Virus record (IMG/VR): IMGVR_UViG_2693429524_000008
Length of the DNA stretch: 7,545 nt
From: a virus
Taxonomy: Duplodnaviria; Heunggongvirae; Uroviricota; Caudoviricetes
Direction: 5' to 3' (one strand)
Below are positions 5,581-7,545 of the stretch, piece after piece (the stretch's first letter is position 1; every line of letters begins with the position of its first letter). The notes under the pieces are model-generated. The model was not told the DNA's origin. It did no database searches and was given only the letters and a program-made list of their open reading frames with translations. The position numbers and the translations under genes were made by a program.

Positions 5581-5915
5581 ACAGTTTAACAACACACTAC
5601 CGTCGCTCGCAACTGATTGCGCTTCCTGTACCGGGTGGAAAAGCGAAGGTGGAGTATTGCTATGCAGTAAATGTACCAGGTGACAGGGAAATTGTAACCC
5701 ACAGCTTTGCAGAGTGGGCTGTGGGTGATTTCAACCGGCAGAAGGAGACAGTCCTTTGCGACAAGTTAACCGCTGGTTCAAAGATCACTACGGAGTGCCC
5801 GTCAGAGTCATTCGTTGGGAGCCGGAAACACAACGGGTTATCTACCTCCGCGAAGGCTATGAGCATGAGTGCTTCAGCCCGCTCGAACAGTTTCGTCGTA
5901 AATTCAGGGAAGTAG
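5577..5915 (+). CDS. Hypothetical ORF, 112 aa; only the N-terminal half looks protein-like, and coding signal moves to another frame from about 5730 (possible frameshifted gene)
   Basis: ATG overlaps the CII-like stop (ATGA). The C-terminal 50 residues are Ser/Ala-rich and low-complexity, while an overlapping frame is clearly protein-like over 5729..5935. Confidence 0.3.
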
Positions 5916-5935
5916 AGGTCGGTCATGAGCACTAA
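5756..5935 (+). CDS. Small hypothetical protein, 59 codons, TTG start (absent from the ATG-only ORF track); alternatively the C-terminal part of a frameshifted gene that begins at 5577
   Basis: Protein-like translation [59 protein letters not shown]; strong Shine-Dalgarno AAGGAG (5742..5747) 8 nt upstream of TTG 5756; the stop (5933..5935) overlaps the next gene's start. Confidence 0.3.
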
Positions 5936-6263
5936 ATTAACCGGCTATGTATGGGATGGTTGCGCTGCATCAGGCATGAAATTATCCAGCGTGGCAATTA
6001 TGGCCCGCCTGGCTGATTTCAGTAATGACGAAGGTGTGTGCTGGCCATCAATTGAAACCATTGCCCGTCAGATTGGCGCGGGGATGAGTACCGTCAGAAC
6101 GGCTATCGCACGGCTGGAAGCAGAAGGCTGGTTAACGCGTAAGGCGCGTCGCCAGGGTAACCGCAATGCGTCGAATGTTTATCAGCTTAACGTTGCGAAG
6201 CTTCAGGCAGCGGCATTTTCTCAACTGTCAGATTCTGACCCGTCAAAATTTCTTACCTGCTGA
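5925..6263 (+). CDS. Winged-helix (HTH_36-like) replication-initiator-type N-terminal domain protein, 112 aa; possibly the 5' remnant of a longer O-like replication gene
   Basis: AGAGG Shine-Dalgarno 6 nt upstream of ATG 5925. Motif ...DEGVCWPSIETIARQIGAGMSTVRTAIARLEAEGWLTRKARRQGNRNASNVYQLN is typical of the HTH domain at the N-terminus of phage replication-initiation proteins. Followed by about 290 bp without a convincing ORF. Confidence 0.55.
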   Translation: MSTKLTGYVWDGCAASGMKLSSVAIMARLADFSNDEGVCWPSIETIARQIGAGMSTVRTAIARLEAEGWLTRKARRQGNRNASNVYQLNVAKLQAAAFSQLSDSDPSKFLTC

Positions 6264-6555
6264 CAAGTGGGTAACGCCACGCATGATGACGAGAACTACC
6301 GGAGTAAGCGAAGCCAGGTGCCAGTTAATACTGACTCAGTTAGTTCTGGCGGGTCTGGCGAAGGATAACGGCGGGTACGGGAATAAATTCAGACGCTGCC
6401 AGTAATGGCGGTTTCCTGCTGTGAAAATGGGCGGCTGGTGGGTGTTGGTAGCACCTGCCAGCCATTCGCTCATGCTTACTGGTCACAAGCGAACCACGGC
6501 CCACTGCTTTAGCGCAAAAGCAGAGTGAGCCTACCAGAGTTACGCTTACTGATCC

Positions 6556-7437
6556 ATGAAAAATACTGTAAAAATAAACAGTATTGATTTAATCAACGCT
6601 GATTGCCTGCATTTTATTCAGTCCCTGCCTGATGATTCCATTGACCTGATTGTTACCGATCCGCCTTACTTCAAGGTGAAACCTAACGGTTGGGACAATC
6701 AGTGGAAAGGGGACGAAGATTACCTTAAGTGGCTGGACCACTGTCTGGCCCAGTTCTGGCGGGTGTTAAAACCTGCCGGAAGCCTTTACCTGTTCTGTGG
6801 GCATCGCCTGGCATCTGATATTGAGATCATGATGCGTGAACGTTTCAACGTGCTTAACCATATCATCTGGGCGAAGCCGTCCGGACGTTGGAATGGGTGT
6901 AATAAAGAAAGTCTGCGCGCATATTTTCCTGCCACAGAGCGCGTTCTGTTTGCTGAACATTACCAGGGGCCATATCGCGGCAAAAGTGACGGCTATGCAG
7001 CAAAAGAAAGGGAACTCAAACAGCACATAATGGCACCGCTGATATCGTATTTCAGGGATGCTCGTGCCGAACTGGGTATAACGGCAAAACAAATTGCCGA
7101 AGCCACAGGTAAGAAAAATATGGTTTCCCACTGGTTTGGTGCCAGTCAGTGGCAGTTGCCGAATGAGGCTGACTATCGGAAGTTACAGGCACTGTTTTCC
7201 CGTATAGCGGCAGAGAAGTTTCAGGAACAACAACTGGAACAACCACACCACCAGCTGGTGGCATCTTATGATTCACTGAATCGCAAATATTCTGAATTGC
7301 TGGATGAGTTTAAATCTCTCCGGCGCTATTTCTCCGTATCAGTCTCCGTGCCTTATACCGATGTCTGGATGCATAAACCCGTTCAGTTCTACCCGGGTAA
7401 ACATCCGTGTGAGAAACCGGCGGATATGCTCAGGTGA
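6556..7437 (+). pseudogene. N6-adenine DNA methyltransferase (beta-class, phage Dam-like), 3'-truncated at the IS junction (methyltransferase-derived part 6556..7434)
   Basis: Catalytic motif IV, IVTDPPYF, near the N-terminus; the ORF ends ...YPGKHPCEKPADMLR-stop, six residues after the HP-x-x-KP motif that normally precedes the C-terminal AdoMet-binding motif (DPF-x-GSGTT type), which is missing. The TGA stop (7435..7437) is the first three bases of the IS terminal repeat. Confidence 0.75.
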
Positions 7438-7545
7438 ACCGCCCCGGGTTTCCTGGAGAGTGTTTTATCTGTGAACTCAGGCTGCCAGATCATCGTTTCC
7501 GATGGAAGCATAATAAGCTTTTTCTGCTTCTGCCGGAGGAGTATG
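7435..7545 (-). mobile_element. 3' terminal fragment of a second IS3-family (IS629/IS1203-like) copy in inverted orientation: right terminal inverted repeat starting TGAACC at 7435, transposase C-terminus on the minus strand (7477..7545)
   Basis: Exact reverse complement of 1..111; same reasoning as for the left-hand fragment. Confidence 0.6.

Follow-up and report, generated by a model that had tools for sequence, protein, structure and literature searches.

How much of a methyltransferase is left when the reading frame of its gene closes on the first bases of an insertion sequence, and how such a gene comes to be cut there, are the questions raised by an open reading frame (ORF) at positions 6556–7437 (+ strand) of the DNA analysed here, a stretch of 7545 nt that we call the window and that makes up the entire contig CYFD01000103.1 of the E. 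coli draft assembly GCA_001284405.1. The ORF, 293 amino acids long in the program-made ORF list, has been deposited as CTZ59929.1 with the product name 'DNA methylase'. It is very probably the 5′ 879 nt, cut by IS629, of the gene for a beta-class methyltransferase of the M.EcoGII family, lying in a decayed lambdoid prophage and encoding an inactive product. How the sequence is built, which IS end is present and to which family the gene belongs are matters of direct observation here. The finding itself is an ordinary IS-generated pseudogene of a methyltransferase family that is already known, and the pseudogene is of little importance by itself; methyltransferases of the M.EcoGII type have been characterised and are on sale as a reagent.

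The gene fragment, delimited by the ORF list, Pfam matches and alignments, comprises codons 1–293 of 350 of a beta-class adenine methyltransferase gene and occupies positions 6556–7434 (+). The ORF matches Pfam PF01555 (N6_N4_Mtase) with 71.1 bits (curated cut-off, 26.7), covering profile positions 1–172 of 221, and the intact homologue reaches 145.9 bits over positions 1–220 of the same profile. Motif IV, DPPY, is found in the translation at residues 35–38 (6658–6669, +) and aligns with the DPPY of solved beta-class methyltransferases, with whose DPPY-containing half residues 9–115 align. A putative helix-turn-helix (HTH) lies inside the target-recognition domain (TRD) at residues 167–193 (7054–7134, +); the Pfam HTH_3 match there is weak and below the cut-off (E = 0.043), and it agrees, as does the HTH-containing insertion proposed in the preliminary description, with the TRD in the published AlphaFold2 model of M.EcoGII (PMC11551740). 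Further along, HPCEKP (residues 283–288; 7402–7419, +) aligns with HPTQKP of PDB entries 9c3u and 8urk and is the conserved HPxxKP element, located ahead of motif I. Between HPCEKP and the TGA stop there are five residues (ADMLR), one fewer than had first been counted, and the ORF ends at R293 with motif I, FxGxG, absent.

In the intact homologue, on the other hand, motif I is present as F310-M-G-S-G314. Intact residues 282–335 match the HPTQKP...DPFMGSGTT region of solved beta-class methyltransferases, and residues 282–347 align with the HPxxKP...DPFxGSGTT half of 9c3u/8urk, M.RsrI, M.MboIIA, CcrM and DpnA. The order of motif IV, TRD and motif I thus places the enzyme in the beta class, and the window ORF, which is without FxGxG, is therefore a gene fragment of that family rather than a complete member. 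The solved enzymes (M.RsrI, 1eg2/1nw5; M.MboIIA, 1g60; CcrM, 6pbd; and 9c3u/8urk) have the same N6_N4_Mtase fold and motif order, but they are distant: the alignment falls into two separate blocks, with E-values between 1e-24 and 1e-13, and the TRD is some 90 residues longer here.

The extent of the loss becomes clear by comparison with the intact gene, for which the reference is WP_000799656.1 of E. coli CE10, a protein of 350 amino acids that continues as ...ADMLR|QIINASSRPGDLVADFFMGSGSTIKAAMALGRRALGVELESERFNQTVKEINELVGK and whose annotated product reads ...HPCEKPADMLRQIINASSRPGDLVADFFMGSGSTIKAAMALGRRALGVELESERFNQTVKEINELVGK. The window ORF is identical to CE10 residues 1–293 at 292 of the 293 positions, and at the nucleotide level there are 4 differences in 879 nt, with no frameshift, no internal stop and no other lesion. 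What is missing is the C-terminal 57 residues (QIINASSRPGDLVADFFMGSGST...), which include motif I. When positions 6400–7545 were compared by megablast with 5426 complete E. coli genomes, more than 1100 genomes gave a match ending exactly at 7434, and in these genomes the gene runs 57 codons beyond that point. Altogether the gene is present in 1250 of the 5426 genomes, in 1143 of them with at least 80% of its length, and the protein cluster at 90% identity has 4060 members, most of the 15 listed being 350 amino acids long. By these figures 293 is not a natural length class, homologues having 349–350 amino acids, and no family of homologues of the shorter length without FxGxG was found. The preliminary description had regarded the ORF as a DPPY-containing beta-class methyltransferase cut just after HP-x-x-KP and deprived of its C-terminal AdoMet motif, and in all of this it is borne out: intact homologues have DPPY first and FxGxG last, those of 349–350 amino acids possess FxGxG, and the homology ends five residues past HPCEKP.

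The intact gene is at home in phages. It occupies a position between Q and the holin gene in phages cdtI and Ayreon and in the CE10 prophage, and there are annotated terminators between Q and the methyltransferase gene in these phages; the position after Q and the terminators thus identify it as a late gene. Putative DNA methylases of 350 amino acids, 98–100% identical and likewise placed between Q and holin, are encoded by cdtI (orf56), Ayreon, mEp460 and SfV (orf48). These genes are intact and belong to inducible or plaque-forming phages, whereas the window copy is IS-cut and belongs to a defective remnant. Relatives with 81–85% identity occur in phiP27, in 1720a-02 and in many Stx phages.

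The literature led us to M.EcoGII as a relative by way of PMC4659465, PMC7544214 and PMC5778455, and the relationship was then tested by alignment. The intact allele is identical to M.EcoGII (EGT69837.1) at 281 of 349 residues (81%) and 90% similar, end to end, the M.EcoGII sequence having been machine-read from the supplement of PMC11551740, so that it may hold a few reading errors. M.EcoGI and M.EcoGII are non-specific N6-adenine DNA/RNA methyltransferases from prophages of E. coli O104:H4 (Murray et al. 2018, PMC5778455). M.EcoGII, of 349 amino acids, is arranged as DPPY-TRD-FxGxG; the lysogen does not express it, and its constitutive expression is harmful (PMC5778455). In its AlphaFold2 model the Rossmann domain is made up of residues 1–134 and 260–349, and the TRD is a four-helix bundle of residues 160–237 with an HTH (PMC11551740). 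An anti-restriction role for such methyltransferases is an assumption in the literature (PMC5778455).

The likeness extends beyond identity. The intact allele has 350 residues against 349, both genes are prophage-borne, and the order of elements is DPPY, TRD with HTH, HPCEKP and FFMGSGST; in related prophages the place of the gene is between Q and the lysis cassette. In the window the early region of the prophage is present, but Q is deleted and the lysis genes would lie past the IS and the contig edge. The window copy differs in that it ends at residue 293, without FxGxG, and in that the gene is without its Q and late-promoter context. The intact allele is probably non-specific as well. M.EcoGIX was also considered as the related enzyme and rejected, the literature placing it on a plasmid. 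The gene had first been described as Dam-like, which does not hold, as its intact form is orthologous to the non-specific M.EcoGII, with 81% identity; the appropriate annotation of the ORF is thus not a Dam-like methylase but a pseudogene of the M.EcoGII type, disrupted by an IS.

IS629, a member of the IS3 family that carries orfA and orfB with a programmed frameshift and that PGAP labels 'IS1203 family', routinely knocks out E. coli prophage genes. In the window, the DNA homology with the intact gene ends exactly at 7434 and base 7435 is base 1 of the IS629 right inverted repeat (IRR). At this boundary AGG|CAA of the intact gene is replaced by AGG|TGAACCGCCCCGGG in the window, which places the IS629 site between methyltransferase codons 293 and 294. 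Positions 7435–7545 are identical at 111 of 111 nt to the IS629 of phage VT1-Sakai (AP000400), a copy annotated at 1310 bp, in which the depositors' 'inverted repeat from right end of IS629' (25 bp) starts at the base aligned with 7435. These 111 nt are the right end of an inverted IS629 copy (7435–7545, −) with its 25-bp IRR at 7435–7459, and they form a perfect inverted repeat with the right end of another copy in forward orientation (1–111, +), whose 25-bp IRR is at 87–111; both ends run into a contig edge, and the IRL side of each copy falls outside the window. The stop codon of the ORF, TGA at 7435–7437 (+), consists of bases 1–3 of the IRR, in agreement with the earlier suggestion that the IS terminus supplies it. 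As both IS629 ends read TGAACC... inward, one in three insertions of the element would be expected to have this TGA in frame. The integrase gene at the left junction is in another frame relative to the TGA and stays open for 15 codons of the IS.

The insertion is thus like that of IS629 in VT1-Sakai in its terminal 111 nt, and the disruption of a prophage gene is typical of the element. On the other hand, an insertion at methyltransferase codon 293/294 occurs in 0 of the 5426 complete E. coli genomes. The exact junction of methyltransferase gene and IS629 gave 0 matches in complete E. coli genomes, GTDB representative genomes and JGI metagenomes, and a pattern search of IMG/VR returned no variant junctions. 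The 293-residue protein is confined to two samples, the source assembly and a single Logan assembly. Starting within the IS629 right ends, a small ORF reads outward across both junctions (7389–7511, −, and 35–169, +) and is probably spurious.

What the insertion does to the enzyme can be described as a short series of steps. A copy of IS629 would enter after codon 293, the TGA at its end would close the frame, and the product would be left without the end of the HPxxKP-linked helix, without motif I and without the remaining C-terminal Rossmann strands. The lost part amounts to 57 of the approximately 90 residues of the C-terminal Rossmann half, including F310-x-G-x-G314. Motif I of amino-methyltransferases binds AdoMet; with motif I missing, no AdoMet binding would be expected, and the product would thus be catalytically dead. 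The loss of activity of the 293-residue product is a strong prediction from its sequence, and in methylome data no methylation motif would be expected to arise from this ORF.

The insertion is not the only damage in the region. A lambdoid prophage, a relative of CPS-53, is represented between the IS ends by its early region, with int′, an excisionase-like gene, yfdR, yfdQ, yfdP, a LexA-like repressor gene, ymfT, ymfL and part of an O-like gene. This 7.3-kb segment is bordered by at least two IS629 copies, each with its IRR facing inward. The resulting look of a composite transposon is a contig-edge effect of a collapsed IS629 repeat, and in the Logan assembly of ERR178206 the contig stops exactly at 7434, consistent with a repeat boundary. 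On the left, the cut integrase gene (72–530, −; ORF list and alignment) retains approximately 125–139 N-terminal codons, its prophage part being 112–530, and is extended by 15 IS codons. Positions 112–740 align with the 5′ part of the integrase gene of FDAARGOS_1277 and the homology stops at 112; the integrase::IS629 junction at 111/112 is absent from the 5426 complete E. coli genomes. With its integrase cut by the left IS629, the prophage remnant thus cannot excise. The prophage of the same type in FDAARGOS_1277 has another IS3-family copy (locus L002, 4630–5939) with an identical 111-nt IS629 end, located at the equivalent of window position ~737–740 in the excisionase/HTH region, and a 3–4 bp overlap there is consistent with target duplication.

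An older event is recorded at 6248–6249, a deletion joint recognised from the ends of homology, where the fragment of the O-like gene (HTH_36) is fused to DNA approximately 300 nt downstream of Q. The left homology (L002) extends to 6249 and the right homology (L001) from 6248 onward, the two sharing 2 nt, AT. Read from this sequence, the joint is an illegitimate deletion that removed the replication, nin and Q genes. E. coli Z1323CEC0019 has the identical joint followed by an intact methyltransferase gene and then lysis genes, and the deletion thus came first and IS629 second. In lambdoid phages the late promoter is located just downstream of Q. As Q and this adjoining DNA had been lost, the methyltransferase gene was already without its normal expression signal before IS629 arrived, and no promoter or terminator match above the shuffled background was found in 5900–7545.

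How IS629 came to lie at codon 293 has two competing explanations. The first, to which we give slightly less than an even chance, is a simple insertion, in which the gene is interrupted and its 3′ 174 nt, the AGG duplicate and the lysis and structural genes follow directly past a 1.3-kb IS. This is the usual mode of IS629, which generates a 3-bp duplication such as GAT at the VT1-Sakai copy, and the four differences in 879 nt, in a gene otherwise barely decayed, suggest a recent event. A simple insertion predicts the reciprocal junction ...GGGGCGGTTCA-AGG-CAAATAATC, so that the 3′ remainder CAAATAATCAATGCCAGTAGTCG would adjoin an IS end reading ...GGGGCGGTTCAAGG. However, the IS629-IRL::AGG::CAAATAATC junction is present in none of the GTDB representatives, JGI metagenomes and complete E. 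coli genomes; these collections, and the protein clusters as well, hold no instance of the missing 3′ end adjoining an IS copy. A DNA pattern, a synthetic 93-nt chimeric query and a chimeric protein query gave no match covering both halves of the reciprocal junction, the protein query returning many IS629-readthrough ORFs and many C-terminal fragments of the methyltransferase, none of which spans both. Nor does any protein span the junction in a collection of 5.8 billion clusters that contains the 293-residue protein, although this counts weakly against the insertion, as the ORF may be uncalled.

Five contigs starting at most 2 nt from the junction (P0013) were considered as the other side of the insertion and rejected, since none has IS sequence; they had been looked up by exact protein sequence, and a common start codon at that point is thus given by construction.

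Opposed to a simple insertion is recombination between IS copies, which would have deleted or inverted the DNA beyond the junction and left a 7.3-kb remnant between inverted IS629 copies. The two inverted IS ends, together with the cutting of both flanking genes, fit either two simple insertions or such a rearranged remnant. Whether it was interrupted or cut off, the gene is inactivated either way.

A further reading, which we consider very improbable, is that the 293-residue fragment keeps a non-catalytic role, either in DNA binding through its TRD and HTH or in dominant-negative pairing with intact paralogues. The fragment does keep the N-terminal Rossmann half and the whole of the TRD (160–237 in the M.EcoGII model), and beta-class methyltransferases have been argued to be obligate dimers (PMC7544214), which would offer a route to such pairing. 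However, its Rossmann fold is split, with 57 residues of the model's 260–349 missing, and the fragment is likely misfolded. Furthermore, Q and the adjoining downstream DNA are deleted with no above-background promoter match upstream of the gene, and the allele's restriction to two samples also speaks against a retained function. Least credible of all is an assembly artefact, in which assembly wrongly attached the contig to a repeat and the strain itself has an uninterrupted gene (CAAATAATC instead of TGAACCGCC after 7434): this is a short-read draft contig with collapsed repeat at both ends, but its 111 nt of IS629 begin sharply at the exact end of the element, where a chimeric join is not expected, and the separate Logan assembly (ERR178206) also stops at 7434, where a repeat boundary should break contigs.

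Also among the matches of the chimeric protein search were at least ten short fusion proteins, all different, in which the N-terminus of an early prophage gene product is joined in frame to the C-terminus of the methyltransferase, the left partners being the O-like gene (at two positions), YmfT, RusA and others. Eight of the fusion proteins were fetched and led to eleven loci (L013–L017, L019, L020–L022, L023 and L024) with eight distinct junctions. In the comparison of these junctions, six of the eight fall inside the palindrome TACCCGGGTA, 10 nt long, at nt 835–844 of the gene, which corresponds to 7390–7399 of the window, where the palindrome is intact; it is thus a recurrent deletion endpoint in relatives. 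Five junctions cross over at the TA(A) of GGGTAAAC and the sixth lies 5 nt to the left, and the sites in the left partners resemble CCGGRTAA, an imperfect microhomology. Of the two further junctions, 20–60 nt downstream, one is at nt 864 and the other, at nt 901, re-uses the RusA site of another deletion. Methyltransferase alleles and lysis cassettes differ between the loci, and the deletions thus look like independent events. The list of fusion matches favours short proteins, so the clustering of endpoints in this region is partly a matter of ascertainment; this does not account for one site being used repeatedly, to the nucleotide.

The IS629 site is 36 nt downstream of TACCCGGGTA, and this closeness may be coincidental. 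A bolder proposal, which we regard as doubtful, is that the 3′ part of M.EcoGII-family genes (~7390–7440) is a rearrangement hot spot, with loss of a toxic, non-specific methyltransferase being favoured once prophage regulation decays, in which case the IS629 insertion would be one of many independent inactivations of the gene. Such a hot spot could begin with a site-specific lesion, whether template switching, breakage at CCCGGG/CCNGG or a resection limited by a hairpin on the downstream side of the palindromic double Chi at 7248–7261, and the initiating lesion could then be followed by microhomology-mediated joining. The recurrent endpoint may be worth a systematic survey, as it bears on how bacteria disarm a toxic phage enzyme.

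A second palindrome, CCACCAGCTGGTGG, perfect over 14 nt, lies at 7248–7261 within the methyltransferase coding sequence, approximately 135 nt upstream of TACCCGGGTA, where it encodes HHQLV. It holds the Chi octamer GCTGGTGG on both strands, the two copies overlapping, and the peptide PHHQLV is also found in M.EcoGII.
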